From positions 449,376,001 through 449,440,000 of the forward strand of contig CM097882.1 in the NCBI GenBank assembly GCA_044892505.1: a DNA stretch of 64,000 bases, written 5' to 3'. Positions 1,185 to 57,304 of the stretch are shown here, in pieces; the first letter of the stretch is position 1, and each line of letters begins with the position of its first letter. Source of the stretch: Schmidtea nova. Its lineage: Eukaryota. The position numbers were made by a program, and so were the translations under genes. The notes below the pieces were generated by a model. The model worked only from the letters and a program-made list of their open reading frames with translations. It was not told where the DNA came from and searched no databases.

Positions 1185-1781
1185 ATGAACCCAGATTTGA
1201 TGCAGAAAGAATTGGAAAAGATGTGGCGGATTCGGAGAGCCCAGGACAAGGAATTGGGTCTCCTCAAGGCACAATTGATCAAAGCAGAGGCACAGATTGC
1301 ATATTTGCGCAAAAGCTGGTTTGCTCCGGCCCGAATGAAGGAGCAAATCAGTAAAACCGAGCGCGCCCAACAAACTGCAGCCGATTACCAAATGGAATGG
1401 GAGGCTACAAAGATAGAACTCCGAAAATGCCTCCATTCCGTAACTGCCTCATACATCGAGAAGGAACTCAGAGAGCAAATCCGTCCGATTACGTACCAAG
1501 CTTGGACGGCAGAAAAGAAGACAGTAAACTCCATTGGAACGGATGTCTCCGATTTAATTGAAAGTCGGAATGTGACAGCTCCTCCAGCCCATTCAACCAC
1601 TTCATCGGCGACTGCGCACCAGAAACGCAAGCGCATTGGGCAGAAACGGCGGAGACAGAGAAAATTATTTGCCCAGCAATTACAAATCCAAGTCGATGGT
1701 CTACGTCAGATGACTGAGGAAGCATTATTGACGGAGATTTTTCCTCCGGCGGGAGTTTTTACCGAACTCATTAAAAATTAA
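1185..1781 (+). CDS. LTR-encoded ORF B, 198 aa, coiled-coil with basic NLS-like stretch
   Basis: ATG ORF with helical heptad pattern and QKRKRIGQKRRRQRK; identical translation at 27758-28354. Confidence 0.6.
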   Translation: MNPDLMQKELEKMWRIRRAQDKELGLLKAQLIKAEAQIAYLRKSWFAPARMKEQISKTERAQQTAADYQMEWEATKIELRKCLHSVTASYIEKELREQIRPITYQAWTAEKKTVNSIGTDVSDLIESRNVTAPPAHSTTSSATAHQKRKRIGQKRRRQRKLFAQQLQIQVDGLRQMTEEALLTEIFPPAGVFTELIKN

Positions 1782-2255
1782 ATAAATTGTTGCATTGGCT
1801 TAAGAATCTCATCGTTCCTTTAAATTGATTTAATTAACTTTACCAATGATTAAATAAAGATAGAACAAAAGTATAAATTCAGTTTACAAAATATCGAATC
1901 GAGATAATTAAATAATTAAGCGAGCATTCGTTGAAATACTTCTCGCAGACTGAGTAATGAAAAAAATAAATTTTCTGAAAGATTTACACGGAATACATAA
2001 GTAGATGATTAAAGCATAAGTCCTTCTAACGGCAGCGATGAACCCGTAAACATAAATGGGGAGTAGTACTAGCGATAGTGCTCACCTGCCCATCATTGTT
2101 TAACCACCCTGCGCATCACCAACTTGATTATATAGGGAAATAATCAAGGGCGCTTGAGTGTAGAATTGCAATTTTATGCATGATCATGGATGAGGGATCC
2201 CTAGTCATTGTTAGAGCATTTTTCATCTAACCCCTCCATGAACCCAGCATAAATT

Positions 2256-2273
2256 TGGGGGCTCAGCCGGGAT
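2256..2273 (+). other. Primer-binding site, tRNA-Pro-like
   Basis: TGGGGGCTCAGCCGGGAT, 6 nt after the LTR end; 16/18 match to the tRNA-Pro PBS TGGGGGCTCGTCCGGGAT of gammaretroviruses. Confidence 0.8.
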
Positions 2274-2580
2274 CAACTTCGTTTTATCGGAAAAATGTAA
2301 ATGTAAAATCTGCAGAGAAGTTTAAAACGCTCGTGTCAATTAATTTAATAAAAAACAGAAAGGTTATAATTAAATTTAAATTATTGTATAAAAATTAAAA
2401 TAACAACATGGCAGTGAACAAAAGTGAAGTTAAAAATTAAATGCATGCATAGATAATTTGTCGGGACGACAATTTTCGGAAACACGGGGGGAGTTAAATA
2501 TTAAAAGATACAAAACGAAACATATTACTACCTTAAAAACGATAAAAATAACAGAGTTAAAACGATTATTTATTCAGTAA

Positions 2581-3042
2581 ATGGAGGAAAAACTGAAAGA
2601 AATTGAAGAATTTCTCAACACAGAAAGCGAAACATTAGAAACGATTGGCAAGAAAATAAACCGATTTAGAGAGACTGAATTTCAGGAACCCACAACACAG
2701 ACTGAAGAGACGGATGAGTTAATAAAGATAACAGAAAGAACAGGTAAAATCGACATAAAGACCCGCTACAAATGGTACAGAGCACGATTAGAAAATGCAG
2801 AACTAAACATTAAGTGCAGGCAAATAGAACAACGATTAACCCCAACATACAATCGATGGAGGGCGCAGGGGGTAGAAGCAGCGAAAAAATACCGACAGTG
2901 CTATATATGTGAGGATAGCGAGATACAAATTATGTTTTTACCTTGTGGACATTTTCGCTTTTGTAAAATATGTGCCAGCAAGTGCGACCTATGTCCTATG
3001 TGCAACCTGATGATAGACGATAAAATTATTGTATATTTATAA
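2581..3042 (+). CDS. Coiled-coil plus C-terminal IAP/XIAP-type RING-HC E3 ligase (no BIR domain)
   Basis: CYICEDSEIQIMFLPCGHFRFCKICASKCDLCPMC at the extreme C-terminus, as in IAP-family RINGs; AATAAA follows the stop. Confidence 0.85.
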   Translation: MEEKLKEIEEFLNTESETLETIGKKINRFRETEFQEPTTQTEETDELIKITERTGKIDIKTRYKWYRARLENAELNIKCRQIEQRLTPTYNRWRAQGVEAAKKYRQCYICEDSEIQIMFLPCGHFRFCKICASKCDLCPMCNLMIDDKIIVYL

Positions 3043-34205: not shown

Positions 34206-34263
34206 GTATTTCATAATTCTATTGTCAAAATTACTTATAATAGCAATTTTTGAATAAATTCAG

Positions 34264-39406: not shown

Positions 39407-41903
39407 ATGGCATCAAATCGAACAAACTCAAATACCATACAAACACTCATTGACAACGAAAATACACAACCCCAACACCCAAACAACAATTATTATTACA
39501 ACGACGAAAACACCCAAATACAAAGGGAAAGTAGCCACTATTATTTTAACCCAGAAAACACTCACACAATTAATGCAATGATTAACCCAATCCCAAATTT
39601 TTTTATCAACGAAGAAGGTTCAGTGCAAACATGGTTGAAACTAGCCAAATTGACATTAACCTTGAGCGGGATAACCTCATCAAGACTAATATGCTCACAA
39701 ATATTCACAGCACTCCCAAGCAATATACACAAATCAATTGCGGATCAAATAGACACAATTTTCAATTGCAATAACCCATTTGAAAAACTGTGCAGCATAT
39801 TAGCAAATAGGGACGAATCAAACAAAAAAGAAATACAGGAACCTTTCACAAACAACAGGCAAAAGGATAATACCCAAAATAATCTTTCAAGTCCACTAAA
39901 ACAGAATTTTGAGTACGACCAAACAATATTAGCAAACATTGATGTAAATGAACGGAGATCATGCCAAACATTAGCAACTAAAAACAATGAAACCGAAAAT
40001 AAAAGGTGGACAGACATGGTCGATAAAATAAATGCAGGAGATTACCCCAGTATTAATAGTACTCATGACTACAAAAACAAAATACTGAACCATGAACAAG
40101 ATGAGAATGAAGACGAAAAAACAGAATTTAACGAAACAAATAAAATCCTAAATAACTTGATAAGTCAACTTGACAAAATTGCAACTGAAAATAAAAGGTT
40201 CAAATCAGAACTAAAAGAAATTAAAGAAAAAAATCTAAAACAAAACTACTGTCCAAATCAAATATCGTACATGCTCAATAGGCCAAAAACAAACTCAGGA
40301 AACCAACACCAAAACTTTTACAACAATAAAAATAAAGGATCTGGAAATAGACAAAAATTCTGGAAACCAGAAATTAGATTATCAAACCAAGAATGGTGTT
40401 ACTTCCATTGCAAATTTGGAGAAAAAGCATTCAGATGCACAAAACCATGTAGATACAACGAAAAAAACACAGAAAAATTGAAAAGTTTGCCATTAGTTGC
40501 TCCTACATTTGGCGAAACAAATACAGATAAACGGAAAACATTACCAGTAGTAGCACCTACATTCGACAATAAACATACAACTTTTTCAATAAGTTCCAAT
40601 AAAATAGAATTCCTAGTGGACACAGGTTCAGTGATATCGCTACTACCACATATTTTATACAAAAATACAAAAAATCAGAACAAACTACTTACCGCAGCCA
40701 ATGGATCCAACATAAATACGTTTGGTGAACAGGATATAAACCTAACAATAAACAACAAAACTTACAAGTGGACATTCACGATAGCCGAAGTTCAACAAGC
40801 AATAATAGGAGCAGATTTCCTAACAAATTACAACCTTCTAGTAGATTGCAAAAACAAGCAAATAATAGAAAATACTAATGCTGCAACTCCACAACGCAAC
40901 ACGAGCAGTGGACCAAGTCCAAAGATAGACATTGGAGTAGTTACAACAAACATAAAAAACAAAACAAACCCGATTAAAAACATACCGGAAATCGACAAAA
41001 TTCTAGAACGATTCAAAGAATTAACGGAACCCGTCCAATTCAACGACGACTCTGAAAAAACAACCGAACACACCATAATCACAAACGGCAATCCAGTACA
41101 CGCAAAAGTAAGACCACTAGATCCCAAAAAGATAGAAATCACAAAAAACATTTTCAGCGAACTGTTAGAAAATAATATTGTGAAACATTCTAACTCAGAA
41201 TGGTCTTCAGCATTGATGCTGAAACAAAAAGCAAACGGTGAATGGAGAGCCTGTGGCGATTACAGACTACTAAACAAAATAACAGAACCAGACAGCTACC
41301 CATTACCAATTATAAAAGACATAATTAATCGAATAAAGGGCGCAAAATACTTTTCAAAAATAGATCTGCAAAAAGCATACCATCAGATCCCAATAAGGAA
41401 AGAAGACATAAAAAAGACTGCAATAACAACACCGGTTGGAATGTTTGAATACAATCGAATGCCTTTCGGTCTACGAAATGCAGCAGCAACTTTCCAGCGA
41501 TTCATGGATCAAACAATGAAAAGCAACAAAAACACAATCGCCTACCTGGATGATATATTTATAACCAGCCCAGACAAGGAAACGCACTTAAACGACATAA
41601 AAAACGTTTTCGAGACACTAAAAAAGGCAAAACTAAAAATCAACGCACAAAAGTGCGAATTCATGAAACCCGAAATAAACTTCCTTGGACATACGCTAAA
41701 TGAAAAAGGAACACAACCAATCGGAAACAAAATAAGCAACATTAAAAATTACAAACTGCCAATGACCACTAGGGAATTGCGAAGATTCCTGGGAATGGTA
41801 AACTTTTACCACTCTTATATTCCAAACTGTAGCAAATTATTGGCTCCACTAAATGACATAATAAAAACAAAACGAGATGTCAAAATAAATTGGACTCAAC
41901 AGA
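39407..41903 (+). CDS. gag-pol: Gag-PR-RT, 5' part of gag-pol, interrupted by the Polinton
   Basis: FLVDTGS, IIGADFL, YLDD. Removing 41904-57304 restores NWTQQ|TTEGFEKAK in frame, giving a 1412-aa ORF. Confidence 0.93.
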
Positions 41904-43132
41904 AGTAGGGGATAGTGAGGACACGGGGCCAAGCCATTTATCCCTAAACTGTATATATTACGTAATAATTATACAGTTGCCTACCCCCACCCCCCACCCC
42001 CACCCCCCCAAAATTACGTAATATTATATATTATTACGTAACTATTACGTAATCATTACGTAATTATTACGTCATTATTACGTAACTATTATGTAACTAT
42101 TACGTAATTATTGTGTAATGATTACGTCATTATTACGTCATTATTACGTAATTATTTACAAAAAATATAAATTCTTACATAATACGAAATCCCTTACGCA
42201 ATTGATGATGTAATACTGTAATTTAATAATATTTATTTATTTTTTCATAATTTTTACAAAAAATATAAAATAAATTAATTTTTTCAAATTTTTACCCAAA
42301 AATTTCAAAAATGCTCGGATTTAAATAATTTTTATACCAATCTACTGGGAATTCAATGGCGAACAAAAAAGGGTCAAAAAGTAAAAACATGAAAAATTGG
42401 TCTTCTATGGTAAATTTAACATGAAAAAACCTTACTTGGTTAAAAATGGTTAAAATTCAAGATCTTTTACATATAAATAACCAGAATTTAACGCTCAACA
42501 ATAAAAAGTAATATTAACTAGAAAAACAACAAAAAACACAAAGTATTTAAAAATAAAACTTTATTTAAATAAATCTTCAGGCAAATTGTTCATCAGCAGC
42601 ATCTTCACGCACACCCATAACCACATCAATTCCCTTATAATGTCCATAAGCCAGACTAACATTTTTTCCCACCCAAAGTCTTTTGTCGTCAAGATTAGTC
42701 AAGGCAATCTTAGAAGATTTATTAGTAAAGAGTTGATGATTCTTACTAACTATTCTCGACTGATCAACAGAAACTATTGAATTATTATTATAACAATCCA
42801 GATACGACTGATGATTCAGTTTAGTATCCTTCAATGTTATACCCTTAGCCTTAATGCACTCTTCATCACCTAAAAGACTGTAACACTTTGGCCTAAGGAA
42901 TACCCACTCATCATACTTGAATCCTTTATTCTCGTCTTTGAATTTACCAATGACGGAATCTAGGTTCCTACTGTATAATGGGTGATTCGGATCATAATTA
43001 GAAGTGTCAAGTAAGTTATCTCTTATCATGGCCGGTAAAAGAATATCAAGCTTACAATTTCTAATCTCAAGAAAAAATGAATCGGTGTCACCAGCAACGA
43101 TGTTAATTTCGCAGTTGAATTCGTTACGATAT
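41904..43132 (-). repeat. Left TIR, about 1229 bp, including an inverted copy of the polB 3' end
   Basis: Reverse complement of 56001-57298; differs in the number of TTACGT repeats and C-runs and by a few substitutions. Confidence 0.92.
42577..43132 (-). pseudogene. Inverted duplicate of the last about 184 codons of pPolB
   Basis: ORF 42577-43029 translates identically to the C-terminus of 55396-56556; identity continues through the GDTDS motif to 43132. Confidence 0.9.
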
Positions 43133-43192
43133 AAAAAACAATAAAAAACACAATTTTTAAAATTAATCTTTATTTAAATAAATCTTCAGCAA

Positions 43193-43574
43193 TTAATTTG
43201 TATTGTAAAGGTCATCATAGTATGCCTTTCTCATTTCAGCAACCAAGATATGCACAGATTGTTGTCTTTTGAAATCGTGGCAACAAGCACATCCATTGGT
43301 GCATGAAACACGCATTGATTCCTTACAAACAATACAATTTTCAACGCACTTGACTCCAGCTCCTAGCACCATATCATAGTGCATTTCAAGCAACTCCTCG
43401 ATATTGATCCCTGTATATTGGTATATTTTATGTACCAACAACTCGGGGGCGCAATAATCGAGATTATTTTTAATCTTTGGATATAAATCTTGGATCTTCT
43501 TGAGAAGTACTTCGAGCAAATAAACTAAAAGAATAAATAAAAATAAAAATAAAAATACTCTTACTTTTTGACAT
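43193..43574 (-). CDS. Small Cys-rich Polinton protein, 2 exons (43565-43574, 43193-43524)
   Basis: ATG TCA AAA A|GTAAGA..TTTTAG|TT TAT TTG (40-nt intron) supplies a real ATG, in frame, to a TTG-started ORF; CxxCxxC..CxxxCxCC cluster. Confidence 0.6.
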
Positions 43575-43624
43575 TTTCAAATTTTAACAATCAATGAGTA
43601 ACAATTAATTCAAACAAAATTTAT

Positions 43625-44059
43625 TTAATTAATTAATGTATTTATTTCATTAATTATATTTTCCACATAATTTTTAAAATCTAAAGTTTTAATTCCAAGC
43701 ATAACTACTTTTCCGCTGCCAAAGACATTGACACATACTGGATCAAATTTCTGTAGACGTAATGCTGGGAATATTTCTGGTTCGAACCAACAACGACATT
43801 TCTTTTGTAATTCATATAAATTAATAAATTTGCCGACATCGACCGTTACAGTAATTGATTGAATCTCTAAATTTTTAATCTTGAATTTCAAATCCCCCGG
43901 CTTTAACGGTTGTTTGCATCCCATTACCCGACACTTGCCAGATTTGAAGAAGATGATGGGGTACTTGCCGCTTCTGTCAACAACTTGTTTCGGTTTGCCA
44001 CTCGGGAATATCATGCCGGGAACTAAACATTTACCTTTATAATTGATGTTGCTCAACAT
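43625..44059 (-). CDS. TATA-binding protein (TBP)-like, 144 aa
   Basis: IIFFKSGKCRVMGCK resembles TBP repeat 1 (ALIFSSGKMVCTGAK). IQSITVTVDV..FEPEIFPAL..VNVFGSGKVVMLGIK resembles repeat 2 (IQNMVGSCDV..YEPELFPGL..LIFVSGKVVLTGAK). Confidence 0.85.
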   Translation of the reverse strand: MLSNINYKGKCLVPGMIFPSGKPKQVVDRSGKYPIIFFKSGKCRVMGCKQPLKPGDLKFKIKNLEIQSITVTVDVGKFINLYELQKKCRCWFEPEIFPALRLQKFDPVCVNVFGSGKVVMLGIKTLDFKNYVENIINEINTLIN

Positions 44060-44114
44060 TTTTGATTAATTAAACAAATATAAACAATATTAATTAATTA
44101 ATTAATTAATTAAA

Positions 44115-44738
44115 ATGGAATTAAGAAATGATGCCGTATATCAAATAGTAGGACCCAGCGGGAGTGGGAAAACCTTGTTTGTATGTAAATTATTACAATC
44201 AAAAATGTTTAAATCGCAATTCAATAAAATTTATTGGCATCGGGGTGCTGATGAAGAACATGGATTGACTCAAGATCAGTTTTGTAAATTAAAAATGACT
44301 ATTATAAAAGGTTTTGACAAAAATTGGTCATCTAGATTACAACATGGTGATGTTATAATTATCGATGACTTGTATCAGGAAGCCAATAAAGAAAAAGATT
44401 TCAACAATTTATTTACAAAAATTAGTAGACACTTGGGTGTTACAGTTATTTTCATTACTCAAAATTTATTCCATCAAGGTGGTAGTCATAGAACCCGGAA
44501 TTTAAATGTACAATATTTGGTTATATTCAAAAACCCCCGAGATGCAACAATTATTGATTTTCTTGCAAGACAAGCATACCCTAATGATAGAAAATTTTTA
44601 CTTGATTCATTTCAAGATGCAACTAAAATTCCTCATGGATATCTGTTTTTCGACTTTACACAACAATGTCCTGATGATTTACGTATAAGAACTGATCTTT
44701 TCAATGAAAAAGGTATAACAGTTTATAAACAAAATTGA
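44115..44738 (+). CDS. A32/FtsK-like packaging ATPase
   Basis: GPSGSGKT Walker A, VIIIDD Walker B, SRHLGVTVIFITQN. Confidence 0.93.
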   Translation: MELRNDAVYQIVGPSGSGKTLFVCKLLQSKMFKSQFNKIYWHRGADEEHGLTQDQFCKLKMTIIKGFDKNWSSRLQHGDVIIIDDLYQEANKEKDFNNLFTKISRHLGVTVIFITQNLFHQGGSHRTRNLNVQYLVIFKNPRDATIIDFLARQAYPNDRKFLLDSFQDATKIPHGYLFFDFTQQCPDDLRIRTDLFNEKGITVYKQN

Positions 44739-44761
44739 AATCGTAAAATTAATTAATTAAA

Positions 44762-44926
44762 ATGTCATTCAAAAAAGTCGTTGTTCGACCCGTTATTGGA
44801 AAATCCGATAAACAACAAAACTTAAAGGTAAAGAAGATGTCATTAAAGAAGACATCATTAAAGAAGATATCATTGAAAAAGAAGTCAAAAATCAAGAAAT
44901 CAAAGAAGAAATGGATTAAATTATAA
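44762..44926 (+). CDS. 54-aa Lys-rich putative DNA-condensing core protein (absent from the ORF track)
   Basis: MSFKKVVVRPVIGKSDKQQNLKVKKMSLKKTSLKKISLKKKSKIKKSKKKWIKL; preceded by the same AATTAATTAAAATG context as the ATPase. Confidence 0.6.
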   Translation: MSFKKVVVRPVIGKSDKQQNLKVKKMSLKKTSLKKISLKKKSKIKKSKKKWIKL

Positions 44927-44938
44927 ACAAAACAAATT

Positions 44939-45286
44939 GTGAAAAATCTGCTAATAATGAAAATTGAACGCAGTTTACCATATTTTAATGCCTTGATAAA
45001 GGCTCCAATTAATAAACGTATGATAATCTTACAGGCTTTTCCCCCATTTGTTATTGATGATTTGCTTGAGGTTATTGTTAATGTAATTCGTGGTAATGTA
45101 AATATTAGTAAAGCCAAAAGATTACGGCTACAAAAACATAAAAGATCACTTTTATCACTAGTCAACACTAAAAATCGTAATCTTATGCGTAAGATAATTT
45201 ATAAACAAAATGGTGGTTTCCTAGGTACATTAATTCCAATAGTATTATCAGCTATAAGTGCAATTTCATCATTAAATGGGAACTAA
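44939..45286 (+). CDS. Polinton core protein with adenain-type cleavage site
   Basis: C-terminal KQNGG|FLGTLIPIVLSAI resembles adenoviral pX GG|FLPALIPII. Confidence 0.7.
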   Translation: MKNLLIMKIERSLPYFNALIKAPINKRMIILQAFPPFVIDDLLEVIVNVIRGNVNISKAKRLRLQKHKRSLLSLVNTKNRNLMRKIIYKQNGGFLGTLIPIVLSAISAISSLNGN

Positions 45287-45345
45287 AAATTCAATACCCG
45301 ATAAACATAATTTAGACTTGAATATATTAACATCTTGTTGTAACA

Positions 45346-46454
45346 ATGAAGGAAATATTAACCAAAAAGAAGGTATCCAAAAATCAATTAAAAAAGATTT
45401 GGACAAACCCAAAAGATCCCGATGGGTTTGCTGGGGTAAACAAAATTTCAAAAAGAGTAAATAATTCAAAGAAAGATACCCAAAAATGGTTATCTGATCA
45501 ATTAGCATATAGTTTAAATAAACCAATGTTGAAAAGATTTCCTACACGAAGTTACAAAACAATTGGTGTTGATGATTTGTGGCAAATGGATTTAATGGAA
45601 ATGATACCTTTTTCAAAAATAAATAATGGATACAAGTATATTTTGACTTGTATTGATGTGTTTAGTCGCTATGCACGTGCAGTTCCAACAAAAACTAAAT
45701 CTGCAAATGAAATGGCTGAAGCTATAAAAACTTTATTTGCAGATGGGCAACCTCGAAATTTACAAACTGATTTGGGTAAGATTTTAATTTAATTTAATTT
45801 AATTTAAATTTTATTCTAGGTAAAGAATTTTATAATAGTAAAGTTAAAGAAATTATCAAGGGTATTAATCATTACTCTGTATTTTCACAATTCAAGGCAG
45901 CTGTTGTTGAAAGATTCAATCGAACTCTGAGAGATAAATTGAAAAAATACTTTGTTTTTCAAGGAAATAAAACTTGGATAAATGTTTTGCCTAAATTGAT
46001 TTATAGTTATAATTATTCTCCCCATAAAGGAATACAAGGAAAGCGACCCATTGATGTTTATTCTACAAATAATATGGATAGTTGGTTATCTGAACAAAGA
46101 AAATCAATAAAGAAAAAGCCAAAATACAGGGTCGGTGATCATGTTAGAATCAGTAAAATCAATGGATCCCCCTTTATCAAGAATTTTGACAATAATTGGA
46201 GCGATGAAGTTTATCAAATCTCGAAAATCAATACAAATCAGAACCCGGTCATGTACTTTATTACCGATTCTGAAAATAATGAAATCAGTGGAAAATTTTA
46301 TGAACAAGAGTTACAAGTCATTCCAGCCCCATCAGTATTCAGAATTCAAAAGATTTTAAAAACCAGATTGGTTGGCAAATATAAACAATATTATGTTCAA
46401 TGGCATGGGTATGAAAAACCCACTTGGATATCTGAAAACCAATTGATTAAATAA
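45346..46454 (+). CDS. int: Retroviral-like (c-int) integrase, 2 exons (45346-45775, 45820-46454)
   Basis: WQMDL, IDVFSRY, AVVERFNRTL; a 44-nt GTAAG..CTAG intron rejoins QTDLG|KEF in frame; chromo-like C-terminus (YYVQWHGY). Confidence 0.9.
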
Positions 46455-46459
46455 ATATT

Positions 46460-47497
46460 ATGAAAGAAAACCAGTTTTATATGATTTTGCCTAGCAATGC
46501 ATGTCCTCTTATTTATCCTAATAATGAAGCTAGTAATTTTAATGTAGAATTTCAAAATCCGATTTATTTAAATAGTAATGATGATTGGGAAGTTGCTTTG
46601 ATTGATTTTACTTTTGTGTATAATTTGTTCCCGTATTATAGTAATTCTTTTATTCAAATTGAAACTAAAAGAGAAATTCAAGAAATTAGTTATTTGAGAA
46701 TCAATAATCAAAATAAAACATTCCAAGTTATAGTTTCTCAACCTAGTTCAGACACTGATGTATTTATTGAAAAATATGAATATTTGGTGTTTGTTTGCCC
46801 ACATGTTCCATTTAAAATTACATTTCCAGATCTTGAACATGCAAAAAGTTTTGGATTGGAAAATGCAACAATTACAAGTGAAAATGATCATTATCGCTTA
46901 AAATTACCAAAATTCACTAATGATAATAGTGTTGAACAATTTGGAATTTTATTAAATTATGACATTAAAACTGTTAATGATCATTATTTTCAAGAAGAAT
47001 TATTCATAACATCATTACCAGAACTGCAAGGATATTTAATGAAAATTAATCCATCTCCATTTAAAGAAATGAAACTTGTCAATAATGAATTGGTTAAAAT
47101 TATTCTTCAGGATAATATTTCAAAAATTACTTTTGATTCAAATTTAACCAAATCTCTGGGTCTACAGAAACAAACATATAATGATACAGAAATAATCGGT
47201 GTAAAAATCCCCAAAATTTTACAACTTCATCAGCAAATGTTCATTTACAGCAACATTATCGAACCAGTAACTGTTGGAGATGTACGAGTTCCCCTCCTAA
47301 AATCAATTTGGATCAAGAAATATGACCAAGGTGAAGTTGTACAAATTGAAATAAAGAATCCAATGTATTTGCCGATTTCAACATCAACTATAAACAACAT
47401 TGAAATCAATATTCGTGATGACAGTGGAAAATTAATTAAATTTTCAAAAGATACAAAGACTCATTTGACTCTACATTTTCGTAAAATAAATGATTAA
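46460..47497 (+). CDS. Minor capsid (penton) protein 1
   Basis: FYMILPSN..NF..PIYL..WEVAL N-terminus; FIYSNII..VGD..PLL..P.YLP..I.I.IRD..G C-terminus. Confidence 0.8.
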   Translation: MKENQFYMILPSNACPLIYPNNEASNFNVEFQNPIYLNSNDDWEVALIDFTFVYNLFPYYSNSFIQIETKREIQEISYLRINNQNKTFQVIVSQPSSDTDVFIEKYEYLVFVCPHVPFKITFPDLEHAKSFGLENATITSENDHYRLKLPKFTNDNSVEQFGILLNYDIKTVNDHYFQEELFITSLPELQGYLMKINPSPFKEMKLVNNELVKIILQDNISKITFDSNLTKSLGLQKQTYNDTEIIGVKIPKILQLHQQMFIYSNIIEPVTVGDVRVPLLKSIWIKKYDQGEVVQIEIKNPMYLPISTSTINNIEINIRDDSGKLIKFSKDTKTHLTLHFRKIND

Positions 47498-48512
47498 AAA
47501 GGATTTTTATGTAAATTTACCAAGCAATTCTTGCCCATTGACACATCCTAATAATAAAGCTGGAAAATTCAATGTTGAATATCAAAACCCGATTTATTTG
47601 GATGGTAGTTGGGAAGTTGCTCTTATGGATTTTACTTTTGTGTACAATGAATTTCCGTTTTATAATAGTTCAAGTATAAAATTTACTAGAAGTGAATTAC
47701 ATTCTAGTTATGAATATTTCAATTTTAACCAACAAAAGAATGAATATGATATTAGTCACGATTCCAACTATTATTTGATGTATATTGATGGCAATATTTT
47801 AAATGTTAATTGTAAATATTTTCCATTTCAAATAATATTTGATAATGTTGAAGAAGCTAGAAAATTAGGGTTTCAAGAAAAAGCTGTGACATTTAATGAT
47901 GAATTAAACAAAATTGAAATTCCTGCAAATGAAAATAAAAAACTTGATGATACTATACGATTTACTATAACTTATACTTTTCCTGTTGAATATACAGATA
48001 ATTTCAAAGACGATTTAATAATAAATAATCTTACTGAATTATCTGATCAAATTGAAACTTTTTATCCACATCCATTTAAAGTGATTGATATTAAAGAAGG
48101 AAAATTAATTAAATTAATTCTTGAAGATGATATAACTAGTGTAAAATTTAGTTGGAATTTAGCAAATTCGTTAGGATTAGTTGAACAAGAATTCTTTGAC
48201 AAAATTATTGATGGTGTATATTACCCACAAGTTTTAAAACTTCATCAACAAATGTTCATCTATACGAATATTATTCAACCAATTCTTGTTGGTGACATGT
48301 CAGTTCCCTTATTGAAATGTGTTTGGGTTGAAAAACATAAAAAGGGTGATTTGGTTCAAATTGTTGAGAAAAATCCAATGTATTTACCGGTCAGTTCCAC
48401 ATATATAAACAATATAGAAATCAATATTCGTGATGACAGTGGAAAAATAGTTAAATTTGCAAAACAAGACAAGACTTACTTGACATTACATTTCCGTAAA
48501 ATAAATGAATAA
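47490..48512 (+). CDS. Minor capsid (penton) protein 2, tandem paralogue
   Basis: Same terminal motifs as 46460-47497 with a divergent centre. Confidence 0.8.
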   Translation: MIKKDFYVNLPSNSCPLTHPNNKAGKFNVEYQNPIYLDGSWEVALMDFTFVYNEFPFYNSSSIKFTRSELHSSYEYFNFNQQKNEYDISHDSNYYLMYIDGNILNVNCKYFPFQIIFDNVEEARKLGFQEKAVTFNDELNKIEIPANENKKLDDTIRFTITYTFPVEYTDNFKDDLIINNLTELSDQIETFYPHPFKVIDIKEGKLIKLILEDDITSVKFSWNLANSLGLVEQEFFDKIIDGVYYPQVLKLHQQMFIYTNIIQPILVGDMSVPLLKCVWVEKHKKGDLVQIVEKNPMYLPVSSTYINNIEINIRDDSGKIVKFAKQDKTYLTLHFRKINE

Positions 48513-48912
48513 TCCAGATATTATCAGTTTCTATAGCAACAGTCAATCAGGTGGAGAATTACCGTATTTTGTAGGTAAGCAATATGGAACTGGTTGGTTA
48601 AAAACGATAGGTAGATTTGCATTACCAATTCTTAGACGTATTGGAAATTTCGGTATGAAAACTGCCAATGACGTGTTAAATAATAATTCAAAGATTTTAC
48701 CTGCACTAAAGTCCAATGCCATTTCTGAAATTAAAGATTCATTACCCGACGTGATTCATCATTTGCCACAAGTAATTAATAAAGTGACTGATGTGTTTAA
48801 CGAAAATAAAACTGAAAATAAACAAAATGGCGGAATTCTTAAACGTAAAAGAAATATGAAGAAACATATAAACAAAAGAATGAAAGGATATGGAACAATA
48901 TTTGAAAAATGA
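48505..48912 (+). CDS. Polinton PZ-like core protein with amphipathic helix and xGG sites
   Basis: QSGG|ELPYFVGKQYGTG|WLKTIGRFALPILRRI; QNGG near the basic C-terminus. Confidence 0.7.
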   Translation: MNNPDIISFYSNSQSGGELPYFVGKQYGTGWLKTIGRFALPILRRIGNFGMKTANDVLNNNSKILPALKSNAISEIKDSLPDVIHHLPQVINKVTDVFNENKTENKQNGGILKRKRNMKKHINKRMKGYGTIFEK

Positions 48913-50135
48913 TTAGTGAAAAATCTGAATTATGTCTTTTTGACAGACCATCTCCACAAGCAGTGATTGAACATGGTGCATTTGAAGATATTTACCCAAC
49001 AAATTCAATTACAGATGCTGGAACATCATCTATTCAATTTTACATCAACGGATCTCAAACTGAATATTTAGATTTGAACGATACTTTATTATCTCTTCAG
49101 ATCAAAGTTGTAAACAAATCGGGTGAAAATTTAGGATTGGATGCTGATGTTACTCCCAACAATTTCTTTTTCCAAACTCTTTTTAAAGAAGCCGAATTAA
49201 TTTTCAATTCTACTAAAGTTGAAGGAGGAAATGATACATTTACACACAAAGCCATGATTGAAACTATTCTCAACTACAATAATGATACAAAACACACATC
49301 TTTAACTCCAATGGGATACAATGAACATGATCTTACTAGAAAAACATGGATTGCAAAATCAAAACCATTTTCAATTTGTTCTCCATTACATTTCGATTTC
49401 ATGGAACAACCCAAGTACTTATTACCAGGTGTAAGTGTTCAAATTAAATTGACGAGATCAAACCCAGCCAATAGTTTAACATGTACAAAAATTGAACCTA
49501 TAATTGAATTATTAGAGGCAAAATTAATGGTTAGAAGAGTTCGAGTTGAACCATCAGTTTTGGCTGGGCATCAAATTGGACTTGGTACAAGAAATGCAAT
49601 TTATCCAATAAAAAATAAGGAAGTCGTAGAATTTTCATTGCCAATGGGATCTTCGTCATTTTATAAAGAACAAATCTTTGGTGATAGACGATTACCAAAC
49701 TTTATTCTTGTAGCATTTCAAGGTAATAAAAGACACGGTGGTTCCTTTACTGAAACCTATTCTATTTACGATCATTTTAATGTCAAATCATTAACTTTAT
49801 CGAAAGGAAGTGATTATCGTGAAAAATATTCTCAAGATTTTGAAAATGATAATTGCAGTACTAGTTATATGCAATCTATTATCCGTAACCTTGGTTACCT
49901 AAATAAGAGTATGAATTGTGGTATTTCATTAGCAGATTGGAAAACCAAATATCCTTTTTTCACCTTCGTTTTGGCTCCAGATTTTGATCTAAATCAAAGT
50001 CAATTACCACAACAGGGTAATTTAAGACTTGATATTAAATTTGGTACACCATTGACTGAATCAGTTTCTGTAATTGTATATGGAGTTTTTGAAAAGGAAT
50101 TACAAATTACAGCTAATCGAACAATACTGGTTTGA
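48909..50135 (+). CDS. Major capsid protein (double jelly-roll, PY)
   Basis: KSELCLFDRPSPQ..YLDLNDTLL N-terminal signature; size and position next to the protease. Confidence 0.85.
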   Translation: MISEKSELCLFDRPSPQAVIEHGAFEDIYPTNSITDAGTSSIQFYINGSQTEYLDLNDTLLSLQIKVVNKSGENLGLDADVTPNNFFFQTLFKEAELIFNSTKVEGGNDTFTHKAMIETILNYNNDTKHTSLTPMGYNEHDLTRKTWIAKSKPFSICSPLHFDFMEQPKYLLPGVSVQIKLTRSNPANSLTCTKIEPIIELLEAKLMVRRVRVEPSVLAGHQIGLGTRNAIYPIKNKEVVEFSLPMGSSSFYKEQIFGDRRLPNFILVAFQGNKRHGGSFTETYSIYDHFNVKSLTLSKGSDYREKYSQDFENDNCSTSYMQSIIRNLGYLNKSMNCGISLADWKTKYPFFTFVLAPDFDLNQSQLPQQGNLRLDIKFGTPLTESVSVIVYGVFEKELQITANRTILV

Positions 50136-50165
50136 GCAGAGCTCAAACATTACTGGTTTGATTAA

Positions 50166-50586
50166 ATGGTTATAAACTAATTTGACAAAAATTTATCATC
50201 AAATGAAGTAAGATTTTAATTTTATTTAAATTTTTATTTTTATTAGTTCTATTCAGATTGAATATATTGCTAGAAAATTATTGGGATCGGAATTTCTTGG
50301 TGTTTTTCCGTTGGATAAAATTCCATATATTGATGTAAACAAAGCTTTGATTGTCAATACTCAATCATCAAACCTTAATGGTGAACATTGGATTGCAGTT
50401 TATGTAAAACCCGATAAAATACACGTGTTTGATCCAATGGGATTTTATTATCCGCCGCTATTGATTAAAAAACTATCGTCAATGATGATGCCAATTGAAT
50501 ATAACAGAATCCGATACCAGAATCCAATGACAAAAACATGTGGTCAGCACTGTATAGCGTGGTTAATAAAAATGTTTAATAAATAA
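50166..50586 (+). CDS. Adenain-family cysteine protease; 49-nt intron (50208-50256) and in-frame TAA at 50178
   Basis: GEHWIAV, VFDPMG, YQN..TCGQHC catalytic motifs; spliced 5' part reads MVIN*FDKNLSSNE|IEYIARKLLG. Confidence 0.8.
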
Positions 50587-51904
50587 ATATTTGTATTGAA
50601 AATTTGTATTATTTTAAATTCATAATTTTAATTAAATTAGTTTTGTTTAATATTTTACGTTGCGGTAATCTAATTCGTGTGCTTGTGTGTGTATCCATGG
50701 AAATTTTGGTGTGTTGTGTATCATGTAATAATTAAGTATATAAACGAGAAAAAATCATTTTAAAATCACTTTTTACTTGATCCCAACTTTGGTAAGTTAA
50801 TTTTTGTTAAAAATCTTTTGAATTAATTTTTATTATTTTTAGAATTTTGCGATATCGAATTTAAAAAATTATGAATTTTAACGAAGAAAATATGAATTTT
50901 AATGAAAAAAGCAATTATTTTGTAAATATCCTAAAGAAAAATGTCAAATGTAAGTATTGTTACAATTGTATTTAATATATTATCATTCTAAAATTAAATT
51001 CAAATTAATTGAATATTAGTTAATTTGAATTTAAATTTAGAAAGTTATATAATTATTAATTTTTAATGTTAATTTAATATTTAATGATAATATTTTCTGA
51101 TTTTAATATTTATTGATTTTAATATTTATTGATAATAATATTTACTAATGTTTATTAACTTTTATTTTTTAATGATAGTTGTTATATTTTATTATTTTAA
51201 TGTTAATTTAAATTATTTGAATATTTAAATAATAAACTATTTGAATTATTTAAATATCTATTTAATTTGAATTAATAATGATTTTTGGAAATTTTCTGAT
51301 AATATTTACTGATTTTAATTTTTATTGATTTTAATATTTATTGATAATAATTTTTACTAATGTTTATTAACTTTTATTATTTAATGATAGTTGTTATCTT
51401 TTATTATTTTAATGTTAATTTAAATTATTTGAATATTTAAATAATAAACTATTTGAATTATTTAAATATCTATTTAATTTGAATTAATAATGAATTTTGG
51501 AAATTTAAAGATATTTTAATAGATTTTATTTATTTGATTATTTAATTTGAATTTATATGCAAAATCAAGCAAAATGAATTTTGGATAATATAAAAGATAT
51601 GTTAATTAATTATTTAAATAATACATTAGTTTAATTATTTAAATATTTATTTAATTTGAATATTAATTTTATATGCAAAACTAATTATTTAAACAAAATG
51701 AATTTTGGATAATATAAAAGATATGTTAATTAATTTTAATTATTTAAATATTACATTAGTTTAATTATTTAAATATTTATTTAATTTGAATATTAATTTT
51801 ATATGCAAAATTAAATATTTTAACATTTAAATAAAAAACTAATCTATTTTATAATAGTTGTAAGCTAAATATTTGAATAAAAGACAAGATTTGAAAATTA
51901 AAGT

Positions 51905-52439
51905 TTATTCATATAAAATAGATTCTATTATCTTCCAAACTGGTCTGACTGTATTGTTTGTTTCTTTAAAACCTTGTATTATTATCTTGATTTGAAACAT
52001 TGAATTTTCTTCATGATTTTCAAAATTACAATCTTTATTAATATTCATGAAAGTAAAATTTTCATTAAATCGCATTTCTTTATTGATTGCTAGTAAAATT
52101 TCACTTATATTTTGTCTATCGATATCTCCAATCTTTCCAACTTGAATGTTGTATAACGATTGTTTCAATGTAACTGGTTCCTATAAATAAAATAATAATT
52201 GTTTTTTAATAAATTAATTAATTACCTTAAATGAATATGTTATTGGGAATTTTAAATATTCCATCGAATATTGAAGAAATTGCACTGCAGGATTTCTGAT
52301 CAAATTAGCTGCCGAAATAGAATTTTCTTCAAGAATAATTTTCATAACTTCTTGTTTGGTCATCTTTTTCGATCCTAAAATAAAAAAATTAAAAAATATT
52401 CATTTTTAAATAATAAAACTAACTTTTAAGTTGAAACAT
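51905..52439 (-). CDS. Three-exon orphan gene, 146 aa (52424-52439, 52226-52374, 51905-52180)
   Basis: Two GT-AG introns (49 and 45 nt) with matching phases give an open ATG-to-stop frame MFQLKRSKKMTKQEV...IESILYE. Confidence 0.65.
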
Positions 52440-52698
52440 TTTTAAAATGAAATCTATATTTTGTTAGATCATTTATATATGTTTTCTAAATTTTATATTA
52501 TCCAATCAAAATTCGTTTAACATTTTATTTGATTTTCATTGATTATTATTTATGTGTGCAGATACACGCTTTATTGATATTTTTTAATTGATTGTTAATT
52601 TTATATATGCATATTTTTAATATTTTTTATTTTTTATAGGCGGATTATATCCCCAATATTGTCATTCATCTTATCATGATGAAACCTGTCATGATTCG

Positions 52699-55600
52699 AT
52701 GGAGCGATATTATTCTTATACCCATAACCGCATCTCTTACCTTATTTGTCCCATTTGTAAATCGACTTCTGTTTCTTCTTATGTAGACTTTTATAAGCTT
52801 CATTGTGAACATTTGAATCAATTTCAATGTTCTAAAAAATCGATTNNNNNNNNNNNNNNNNNNNNNNNNNNNNNNNNNNNNNNNNNNNNNNNNNNNNNNN
52901 NNNNNNNNNNNNNNNNNNNNNNNNNNNNNNNNNNNNNNNNNNNNNNNNNNNNNNNNNNNNNNNNNNNNNNNNNNNNNNNNNNNNNNNNNNNNNNNNNNNN
53001 NNNNNNNNNNNNNNNNNNNNNNNNNNNNNNNNNNNNNNNNTGTGATCCCACCCCAAATAAATTAATTAAATTAAATGAAATAGTTGTTCTTTCTGACGAC
53101 GACGATATAGTGATTGTTTCTGATGACGATGATATAGCTGTTCCCTCTGAAATAGTTGTTCTTTCTGATGATGAACCCATCATAGATGTTCAATATGGTG
53201 GGTCCCTTCTTCCTAATGTTAAATTTGATTTGAGAAAATCTCACGCCGTTGTAAAAATGGATGTTTCTCACTTGGTTTTGAAAACTTTAATTTTACCTGA
53301 TATTTTAATTAATAAATTAAATAATGTTATTAATGAGATGGGTTCAGTGAAAATACAATTTTGTATTGATGTAGAGTTTGAAAAAGATGGTGAATTTCAA
53401 TCATTTATCATTTCAAACTCTGCGAGACCCATGAGTGATACCTTTTTTGACGAGGGTATTGCTCTTTTAAATGAAAAGATATCGTTAATTAACGATAAAG
53501 GGAGTAATTGGGTTATTAACAAAGTTAATGAAATCCATTTCGTTGTAACAAAATTTGCTCAAATTAGTCGATTGAGTGGCAGAGGTCATATTGAAACCCC
53601 TCAATCTTTACAATTAAAATATTGTACAGTAAACGTAAGAAATTCTGACGACTTGTGTTTCATTTATAGCATTTTAGCTATTTTAAAATATGATGAAGTT
53701 GATGGACATAGATATAGGACTAGTAGTTATAATCTTTCTGATCTTGACTTTGTCCGTTCTGATTTACCGATGAGACTTTGTAATATTCCGAAATTTGAGG
53801 CTAAAAACCCTGGACTTGCTATTAACGTTTTTTCATATGATGAGGATGCTTTACTTGATACATTGGCAAATCCTGAAGTTTTTAAACACCCTTGTGTCGA
53901 TATAATTCATAGGTCGAAAGTTGTTGGTGGTACTCCTATTAACTTGATTTTGTTGGAAAGTGGTGATGCATATCATTATATTGCAGTCACCGATCTAGAT
54001 AGGCTTTTGAATTATCGCAATCACCATTTTTCAGATACTCGAGTACAAAGTATTTGGTGTCATCGATGCTTGAATGGATTTCGAAAACAGGAAGCATTCG
54101 ATTGTCATCAACAGTTGTGTGCTAAAAATCAATTAGGCACAACTCTTTATACTCTGCCTAGAAATAAAAATTTGAAATTTAGTAATTGGGGCAAAACAAT
54201 TACCCCACCTTTTGTTGTTTACGCCGATTTTGAGGCAATCTTACCTACTGATGAAAAGTACTTTCAAAGACATGTCCCAATATCTGCCGGTCTTTTACTT
54301 GTAAATAATTTCACTGGAGAAAAGATTTACAAGAGTTTCTTAGGTCTTGATTGCGTTACTAATTTTCTTACTGAAATTAGTAATATTTCTGAAACTATTG
54401 TTTATCCCTTTTATAGAACTAATTACAAGAAACCTCTTTTTATGACATCGGCTAATCAACAATCTTTTGATTCTGCTACTATTTGTTATCTTTGTAAGAA
54501 AACTTTAGTACAACCAGTTAGAGACCATGATCATTACACTGGTGAATTTTTGGGAGCTGCTTGTAATTCTTGTAATCAATCCCGTCGTTTATACAAGTTT
54601 TTACCCGTTATTTTTCATAATTTAAAGGGTTATGACTTGCACCATATTCTTAAATATGGTTTGGCTAATTTTTCAACTTGGAAAATTTCTTGCATTCCTA
54701 CAACTAGTGAAAAATTCTTGACATTGTCAGCAAGGGTTGGTGATTTAACCATTAAATTCATCGATTCTTGTCAGTTTGTAAATTCTAGTTTAAATGACGC
54801 TGTTAAGACTCTTACTTGTTTGCCTTTGACTAGATCTGAATTCACCGGGACTATTGTTGACTGTAAGGGTATTTTTCCTTATGATTTTGCAACATCTTTA
54901 GAAATTCTTAACAACACTTATGAGTTGCCACCAATCTGGAAAGGTGTTAAACAAGATGAATATGACAAGGCATTGGTGATTTGGAGGGAATCCCAGTGTC
55001 AAACTCTTTGTGACTATATGATGGTCTACCTTAAACTGGATGTTTTTCTTCTTGCTGATTTCTTTCAACAGTTTAGGGCTAAATCTATAGCTCACAATAG
55101 ACTTGAGCCTTTGAATTTCTTGGGGATTCCAGGTATGTCGTGGGCTTCTGCGCTTATTACCTTGGAAGAACCTATTGAGTTGCTCCAGGATATGGAGATT
55201 TATAATTTTTTCGAAGGGGGGATCCGTGGTGGATTGACATTTGTCAACAAGCATCACGTAGTATCCTCCGAAACGACTGAACTTTTATATATTGACATAA
55301 ATAATTTATACGGGTGGGCTCTAAGTCAAAAATTACCTTATGGTGAATTTAGTTGGATCACAGATCAAAATAAATTAAATTAATTAATTAAATTAATGGA
55401 TGCTGATTTGGCTATTTTGACTTATGGCGTGACTTTTGAAGTGGATCTTGAAATCCCTTCAGAAATTCACGATAAATTAAATGATTTTCCGGTTGCAGCA
55501 GAGAAAATGTGTGCTCCCGGTTCAAAAGTTGAGAAATTAATGCTTACGCATTATCCAAAGTTCAACTATGTTGTTCATTGGAGGCTTCTCAAGCTTTTTG

Positions 55601-56556
55601 TTTCTTTGGGTGTTAAAATAACACGAGTTCATCGGGCTGTTCAGTACAAACAGAAACCCATCTTTAAAAAATATATTGATACGAACACTGAACTTAGGGC
55701 AGCTTCTTCTACGGCTTTAGATAAAAACTATTACAAACTCTTGAATAACAGTCTTTATGGGAAAACGGTTGAAAATCTTAAGAAACGACTCAATTTACGA
55801 CTTTGTAATTCAGCATCAAAACTGATTACATATACTTCAAAACCTACCTTTAAAAAAACTTATAGAATTGATGATGACCTAGTTTCTGTCTTGCTTAATA
55901 AGGACTCTGTGTGTTTAGATAGACCCAGCTACATTGGTCAAACTGTACTGGATTTATCTAAACTTAGGATGTACCAGCTGCAGTATGAAGAGTTACAAAA
56001 ATATCGTAACGAATTCAACTGCGAAATTAACATCGTTGCTGGTGACACCGATTCATTTTTTCTTGAGATTAGAAATTGTAAGCTTGATATTCTTTTACCG
56101 GCCATGATAAGAGATAACTTACTTGACACTTCTAATTATGATCCGAATCACCCATTATACAGTAGGAACCTAGATTCCGTCATTGGTAAATTCAAAGACG
56201 AGAATAAAGGATTCAAGTATGATGAGTGGGTATTCCTTAGGCCAAAGTGTTACAGTCTTTTAGGTGATGAAGAGTGCATTAAGGCTAAGGGTATAACATT
56301 GAAGGATACTAAACTGAATCATCAGTCGTATCTGGATTGTTATAATAATAATTCAATAGTTTCTGTTGATCAGTCGAGAATAGTTAGTAAGAATCATCAA
56401 CTCTTTACTAATAAATCTTCTAAGATTGCCTTGACTAATCTTGACGACAAAAGACTTTGGGTGGGAAAAAATGTTAGTCTGGCTTATGGTCATTATAAGG
56501 GAATTGATGTGGTTATGGGTGTGCGTGAAGATGCTGCTGATGAACAATTTGCCTGA
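52699..56556 (+). CDS. polB: Protein-primed family B DNA polymerase; in-frame TAA at 55381-55383; N gap at 52846-53040
   Basis: YADFE, RDHDH..GAAC..CN, FHNLKGYD, KGIFPYD, YIDINNLYG, KLLNNSLYGK, GDTDS, KAKG; both ORF pieces are in the same frame. Confidence 0.95.
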
Positions 56557-57298
56557 AGATTTATTTAAATAAAGTTTTATTTTTAAATACTTTGTGTTTT
56601 TTGTTGTTTTTCTAGTTAATATTACTTTTTATTGTTGAGCGTTAAATTCTGGTTATTTATATGTAAAAGATCTTGAATTTTAACCATTTTTAACCAAGTA
56701 AGGTTTTTTCATGTTAAATTTACCATAGAAGACCAATTTTTCATGTTTTTACTTTTTGACCCTTTTTTGTTCGCCATTGAATTCCCAGTAGATTGGTATA
56801 AAAATTATTTAAATCCGAGCATTTTTGAAATTTTTGGGTAAAAATTTGAAAAAATTAATTTATTTTATATTTTTTGTAAAAATTATGAAAAAATAAATAA
56901 AAATTATTAAATTACAGTATTACATCATCAATTGCGTAAGGGATTTCGTGTTATGTAAGAATTTATATTTTTTGTAAGTAATTACGTAATAATGACGTAA
57001 TAATGACGTAATCATTACACAATAATTACGTAATAGTTACATAATAGTTACGTAATGATTACGTAATGATTACGTAATAGTTACGTAATATGACTTACTA
57101 ATGACGTAATAATGACGTAATAATTACGTAATGATTATGTAATAATTGCGTAATGATTACGTAATGATTACGTAATAATATATAATATTACGTAATTTTG
57201 GGGGTGGGGGGTGGGGGGTAGGCAACTGTATAATTATTACGTAATATATACAGTTTAGGGATAAATGGCTTGGCCCCGTGTCCTCACTATCCCCTACT
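56001..57298 (+). repeat. Right TIR, about 1298 bp
   Basis: Inverted match to 41904-43132. Confidence 0.92.
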
Positions 57299-57304
57299 AA
57301 CAGA

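Follow-up and report, generated by a model that had tools for sequence, protein, structure and literature searches.

Predicted host-spliced core genes in a Polinton of Schmidtea nova and a protease intron common to its relatives

Polinton (Maverick) genes are usually described as unspliced, a point made in an earlier note on the DNA studied here and borne out by the parts covered of four sources (PMC8097293; bioRxiv 10.1101/2022.07.12.499685; PMC10120064; PMC9356565). According to those parts, intact vertebrate elements are without introns (Barreat and Katzourakis 2021, PMC8097293; Kapitonov and Jurka 2006 is cited there as agreeing), 'intact' being defined by intronless open reading frames (ORFs). 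The core genes of Caenorhabditis elements are likewise intronless, with introns only in cargo genes (Widen et al., bioRxiv 10.1101/2022.07.12.499685), and the premise of no introns is used to justify prokaryote-style gene callers (PMC10120064; PMC9356565). Nothing on spliced Polinton genes was found in the parts covered of PMC10748475, PMC8502044, PMC11296320, PMC10175614, and PMC5803895, and the literature searched, outside the scope of which lay most subscription journals, supplements, and Repbase, did not describe conserved spliceosomal introns in any Polinton core gene. Here, we describe a Polinton in a stretch of 64,000 nucleotides from Schmidtea nova (GenBank assembly GCA_044892505.1, contig CM097882.1, positions 449,376,001 to 449,440,000 of the forward strand; this whole stretch is called the window) of which the integrase and protease genes appear to be split by short introns. 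With a probability of roughly 0.85, it represents a clade of animal Polintons with host-spliced genes, in which a protease intron was inherited and other introns were gained later.

Adenoviruses have a related polymerase and protease, are transcribed in the nucleus, and use host splicing. To our knowledge, they use no rve integrase to integrate, and they process large units mostly by long-range alternative splicing rather than by the removal of 40-nt host-like introns. Group I introns occur in Polinton-like viruses (PMC12220804), and dinoflagellate Maverick-Polinton-like elements contain introners (Gozashti and Corbett-Detig 2025, PMC11957031). The latter resemble the present case in having intron-type sequences within full-length Polinton-like elements; however, in the part of that paper covered, the inserts are host introner copies mostly thought to have arrived after integration, whereas the introns found here are mutually unrelated and one of them appears to have been inherited across a deep divergence. 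Ginger1 transposases also contain introns: one to four introns of the GT-AG type interrupt the Gypsy-type integrase of this DNA mobile element, and the positions of some are conserved (Bao et al. 2010, PMC2836005, as far as covered). Unlike this Polinton, Ginger1 is a single-gene cut-and-paste transposon without such a module of polymerase, capsid, and protease. The closest likeness is to animal Polintons and Mavericks including the adintoviruses (PMC8502044, in the part covered), which share the inverted ends, 6-bp duplication, protein-primed polymerase, rve integrase, packaging ATPase, adenovirus-like protease, double jelly-roll capsid, and pX-like protein. From those described there, the element differs in that short GT-AG introns interrupt its integrase and protease genes, one of these introns being conserved in the clade. 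By every defining feature tested, it is a Polinton, and it departs from the described ones in its predicted spliced core genes.

In the protease gene, the earlier note had placed a 49-nt intron at 50208-50256, with an acceptor that is 10 nt too far downstream: in that frame a stop lies upstream of the junction, and no Met stands between the two. When the acceptor is moved to 50246, the ATG at 50203 lies 19 residues before the GVF motif, which is the commonest spacing among Met-starting homologs (25/149; 17-21 residues in 89/149). Seven of the 37 related metagenome loci compared reach the protease (L009, L010, L013, L016, L017, L022, and L031, representing five distinct elements), and in all seven, at 48-57 % protein identity, an intron is present at the same position and in the same phase. 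These introns are 37-47 nt long, all have a GTAAG donor, and their interiors have diverged. At the DNA level, no interruption exists at this site in the more distant outgroup L038 (capsid 44 %). In a tree of capsid, integrase, and ATPase from 11 elements, which need not reflect the history of the protease, the intron-bearing elements group apart from L038 with support 98/98.

A tree of the protease itself was made from 69 rows, namely the window, five loci, and 63 of 163 database matches; the latter were hand-picked as the top-scoring ones plus selected Met-starting outsiders, and P0127 and P0129 were omitted because they nearly duplicate loci. A group of 26 rows (82/92) contains all six rows with a DNA-verified intron, all six rows with an N-terminus that reads through a pyrimidine-rich tract, and eight of the nine truncated rows, and 42 of the 43 rows outside it begin with a normal Met. 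The protease intron thus appears to be old and clade-wide, and ORF-only calling truncates or misreads the protease in relatives. At the protease C-terminus of L016 (5651-5698) and L017 (5621-5669), both on the plus strand, a second GT-AG interval was seen; both readings lead to short tails.

The integrase intron has a different history. When its exons are joined with an X at the split codon (QTDL-X-KEFY), they are colinear with all homologs: the split-codon column is Gly in 119/119, and no indel occurs within eight columns. Read without splicing, the frame stops five codons on, so that ORF calling splits the gene, in agreement with the earlier warning that ORF-only annotation would misjudge the integrase. 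Both sides of the junction are covered in 32 of the 37 loci, and all 32 are uninterrupted. Because the exons are colinear with 119/119 homologs and the site is uninterrupted in 32/32 loci, it is well supported that this real-looking intron was gained in the lineage of the window's own element. Presumably, the parent element carried it before this copy inserted. The start of the intron resembles that of the next exon (45776-45835), and AGGT is present at the site in some intronless relatives; an origin by tandem duplication is possible.

The protease and integrase introns are two of six GT-AG intervals proposed in the earlier note. All six have the ends, coordinates, and strands given there, at 40-51 nt and 88-93 % A+T. 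In the region 43133-52845, four candidates with a GTAAG-type donor were counted, where local dinucleotide shuffles gave 0.01-0.03 on average (n = 200; none of 200 reached four with either of two shuffling-window sizes). With looser donors, nine were counted against 1.1-1.25, and again 0/200 shuffles reached that number; the thresholds were chosen post hoc, with the introns already known, and the looser count takes in alternative donors for a single intron. No candidate was found in 24,400 nt of retroelement coding sequence and 3,516 nt of polymerase sequence, which form a weak control, being richer in G+C. The intervals have the marks of U2-type introns, namely GTRAG-like donors, pyrimidine-rich YAG acceptors (with the AAG acceptor of L010 and L031 as the exception), and a length like that of the 58-nt host intron, to which the earlier note had compared them and which was confirmed at 34206-34263. 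They look spliceosomal and host-sized. The claim that each coding intron restores a frame or motif held for the integrase and, once corrected, for the protease; it is weak for 52181-52225, and frame and homology give no measure for 43525-43564, 52375-52423, or 50792-50842.

Of these four remaining intervals, that in gene A, on removal, brings the long frame together with the closest Met upstream; Pfam, PHROGs (best E 0.1), the Atlas (best score 0.78), and the 37 loci gave no homolog of gene A. The leader interval lies upstream of a 34-codon ORF, inside which an extra GTAAGT donor is present at 50951. In gene Z, a Met lies a few codons into exon 2, so that the frame cannot test intron 1. The gene Z family is present in L009 and L022 (BLASTP E = 1.7e-12 and 1.7e-10), where the site of the window's second intron is without an intron; the L009 homolog is intronless, and that of L022 has a single 43-nt intron, which precedes this site by about 19 codons. 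In the comparison with L022, the N-terminal part of its homolog was translated in a wrong frame, without effect on the part that aligns further downstream. Homology across the intron 2 junction is modest and is weak upstream of it, and for exon 3 the protein search gave no longer homolog. The L009 homolog (1256-1822, minus strand) has weak Atlas look-alikes among giant-virus proteins; in one such cluster, a weak lead with a score of 0.85, 12 % of the members are labelled poxvirus I3 (single-stranded DNA binding). A seventh candidate, with a tentative donor and first exon, was found at the 5' end of the polymerase gene; weak similarity to L009 starts right after its acceptor at 52639, upstream of the first polymerase Met.

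Relatives carry introns of their own. The polymerase N-terminus of L022 (12562-12909, minus strand) contains three successive phase-1 introns (45, 53, and 49 nt), and the internal exons that separate them, 117 and 84 nt long, are open. In L004, small genes have two 40-nt introns close to their starts, one following codon 3 and the other codon 9. Several other GT-AG candidates in related loci were rejected as lying inside intact frames or in intergenic tracts, as was L013 7832-7866, which overlaps an uninterrupted start. No relative was found in three scans of viral contigs with integrase, protease, and capsid alignments. L004 and L007 have a RING-like gene, and L007 (about 1900-2730, plus strand) has, in a by-eye reading, a TRAF/MATH-like gene. 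The Polinton contigs L038, L039, and L040 lie inside bacterial metagenome-assembled genomes, probably through binning contamination.

The copy in the window appears to be very young with intact termini, because its terminal inverted repeats (about 1.2-1.3 kb each) are identical at 1215 of 1222 aligned bases and the long terminal repeats (LTRs) of the Gypsy element that it interrupts at 1013 of 1016. Within 38200-60528, the Polinton is nested in the Gypsy pol gene and the Gypsy element in a (TA)n tract; this tract belongs to a host dehydrogenase gene, within the intron that comes next after the 58-nt one. The two Gypsy LTRs differ chiefly in their count of 91-nt repeats. Long terminal inverted repeats and a 6-bp target-site duplication (AACAGA on both flanks) are two of the defining Polinton features found. 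The others are a family B polymerase (PF03175 in both pieces), an rve integrase with D-D-E, the residues at the catalytic positions being found in both exons, a packaging ATPase (PF04665) with an adenovirus-like protease (PF00770), and, as a structure model suggests, a double jelly-roll major capsid protein. In Foldseek, the capsid model matched the capsids of iridovirus, PBCV-1, mavirus, and Sputnik (E about 1e-14); a search of its profile against the PDB gave no sequence match. Intronless core genes, a trait from descriptions in the literature and outside the family definition, are not seen here. The features are collected below.

Table 1 Features of the Polinton and its surroundings, in positions of the window
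Feature	Position	Strand	Remarks
Host intron	34206-34263	+	58 nt; first intron of 2-hydroxyacid dehydrogenase gene, between open exons
Target-site duplication, left copy	41898-41903	+	6 bp; within pol gene of Gypsy LTR retroelement
Whole Polinton/Maverick	41904-57298	.	15,395 bp; ends AGTAG...CTACT
Left terminal inverted repeat	41904-43132	+	With copy of polymerase gene 3' end
Gene A, small Cys-rich protein	43193-43574	-	10-nt first exon
Gene A intron candidate	43525-43564	-	40 nt; phase 1; after codon 3; GTAAG...TAG
TBP-like gene	43625-44059	-	Uninterrupted; PF00352 E=1.9e-13
Packaging ATPase	44115-44738	+	Uninterrupted; Pox_A32 (PF04665) E=2.1e-6
Adenovirus pX-like core protein	44957-45286	+	PF05829 E=1.6e-5
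rve integrase with chromodomain	45346-46454	+	Exons 45346-45775, 45820-46454; PF00665
Integrase intron	45776-45819	+	44 nt; phase 1; two codons past second catalytic Asp
Two tandem paralogous genes	46460-47497, 47490-48512	+	Uninterrupted; putative minor capsid proteins
Conserved small gene	48505-48912	+	Uninterrupted; precedes capsid gene
Double jelly-roll major capsid protein (model)	48909-50135	+	Uninterrupted; structure model pLDDT 76.8
Adenovirus-like cysteine protease	50203-50586	+	Exons 50203-50207, 50247-50586; PF00770 E=1.6e-5
Protease intron, corrected	50208-50246	+	39 nt; phase 2; after start codon and two bases
Leader intron candidate	50792-50842	+	51 nt; 55 nt past TATA-like box at 50737; before 34-codon ORF
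34-codon ORF	50871-50975		Downstream of leader intron candidate
Gene Z	51905-52439	-	Three predicted exons 52424-52439, 52226-52374, 51905-52180
Gene Z intron 2	52181-52225	-	45 nt; phase 0; contains in-frame stop
Gene Z intron 1 candidate	52375-52423	-	49 nt; phase 1; after codon 5
Seventh intron candidate	52594-52639	+	46 nt; polymerase 5' end; donor and first exon tentative
Family B polymerase	52640-56556	+	PF03175 in both pieces
Right terminal inverted repeat	56001-57298	-	
Target-site duplication, right copy	57299-57304		AACAGA; identical to left copy

The tandem paralogs at 46460-48512 are presumably minor capsid proteins, an unconfirmed label given from gene position; in related loci, such a gene is present once or twice. 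Over some 1,110 residues, with an X placed at its stop, the polymerase shares 47-50 % identity with those of L022 and L009. It contains an assembly gap and an in-frame stop at 55381-55383, in an A+T-rich stretch without GT-AG borders; L022 has no internal polymerase stop and L009 has one. The inverted repeat holds the last ~185 polymerase codons (42577-43132), which gives a second 3' copy at the left end. Elsewhere in the window, a giant LTR retroelement occupies positions 1 to about 29000, with LTR starts 26,573 apart; it encodes gag, a fusion glycoprotein between gag and pol, protease, reverse transcriptase, integrase, ankyrin repeats, and a TRAF/MATH gene, a domain that it shares with L007. 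It fits the description of the planarian Burro element in the part of PMC6431247 covered, a fit by which the host would probably be a triclad flatworm. In planarians, knock-down of PIWI de-represses Polintons (PMC8532177).

According to the interpretation of a host-spliced clade, nuclear transcription of the genes of these Polintons would be followed by splicing in the major spliceosome of the host. The protease gene of the clade's ancestor would have gained an intron of about 40 nt right after the start codon, and this intron would have been retained while the proteins diverged to about 50 % identity. Separate gains would have followed in the sublineages, in the integrase and gene Z here and in the polymerase N-terminus and small genes of relatives; this order of the gains is one that we infer. 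Since the integrase and protease genes carry introns, making the integrase and the capsid-maturation protease would require splicing, while the capsid and ATPase genes stay uninterrupted. The protease intron is common to 7/7 relatives and the relatives have their own frame-preserving introns; therefore, splicing was probably inherited in the clade, with continuing gain, and does not reflect decay of this copy. The earlier note had explained the introns by long nuclear residence with intron gain, and had proposed a check of position conservation. Conservation was found for the protease intron and is lacking for the integrase intron. Long residence suits the lineage and not this copy, given its nearly identical repeats, and intron gain stands in part, the ages of the introns being different.

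Introns can aid expression or escape from silencing. Because many of them lie in the first few codons (protease, gene A, gene Z, and leader here; L004 among the relatives), a role in expression or in escape from silencing is suggested: they might give transcripts the look of a host mRNA, help export, avoid silencing, or time the protease. Such a function is a tentative proposal, and it is doubtful that the clade adopted a host-style gene structure as an adaptation and keeps gaining introns while mobile; neutral intron gain is equally possible.

Several points weigh against a host-spliced clade. Removal of the intervals in vivo is read from the sequence, and a single outgroup, L038, was checked at the DNA level. 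Among the five sequencing runs listed as matching the window, none was of RNA, which has no bearing on expression; four of one study contain 70-81 % of the sampled words and may be the source of the window itself, and a soil run with a share of 0.19 was left aside. Support for the group of 26 protease rows is not strong, and its rows were labelled by eye. Six of its records have an uninterrupted Met start (P0122, P0137, P0138, P0141, P0142, and P0260), which may be losses, basal intronless forms, or products of spliced RNA. P0122 is nested beside a read-through record (97/86), at the protein level only; either it lost the intron or the record was derived from spliced RNA. The integrase intron was seen in one copy only. 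Joining the exons of gene Z hardly alters its matches (E 1.7e-12 joined vs 2.1e-12 unspliced for L009, 1.7e-10 vs 3.3e-9 for L022), and three introns of the earlier note (gene A, gene Z intron 1, and leader) have good signals and no homology support. Finally, this copy may be non-autonomous, because its polymerase is broken.

Of the alternatives, the one that survives best accepts the protease intron as real and old and takes the integrase interval and some of those in small genes as private or poorly spliced, with an inactive integrase. The absence of the integrase interval from 32/32 related loci and the three small-gene intervals without homology speak for it; a GTAAG donor, a T-rich TAG acceptor, a host-like length, and exact colinearity would be rare in a random insertion, and relatives likewise carry private, frame-preserving introns, which makes this alternative unlikely. 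Another is that the introns are copies of an intron-generating transposon, an introner. There is a precedent in the dinoflagellate elements (PMC11957031, in the part covered), and the first 15 nt of the integrase intron are also those of the protease intron, the similarity of the two interiors being z = 2.6 (8/500 shuffles). However, this pair was the highest-scoring among 28, an unrelated pair did equally well (7/500), none of the 28 pairwise comparisons of the window's introns stands out after allowing for their number, no repeat hallmarks were seen, and the protease intron is old where the integrase intron is recent; an introner origin was rejected as very improbable. Least likely of all are A+T-rich insertions or slippage tracts that broke the genes after integration in a decaying copy. 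This reading is favored by the low-complexity interiors, the polymerase stop in an A+T-rich stretch, and the 96 % of vertebrate Maverick loci that are degraded (PMC8097293, as far as covered). Against it, five other distinct elements have the interval at the very same nucleotide, the GT-AG borders are exact and fall where the frame is preserved, four candidates stand where 0.01-0.03 are expected, and the copy is too young for much decay.

In conclusion, surveys of Polintons and related viruses rest on the premise of intron-free genes, under which an intron-bearing clade would score as degraded or would lose the start of its protease and half of its integrase; public protein records do show truncated or misread proteases in relatives. 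A conserved spliceosomal intron in a gene for capsid maturation would be sequence evidence that virion genes are expressed in the nucleus by the machinery of the host. Related elements with private introns at differing sites would make up a small system for dating recent intron gain and studying its mechanism. If the adaptive proposal were true, these Polintons would form a branch of spliced DNA viruses that is largely unannotated and in which intron gain could be watched.

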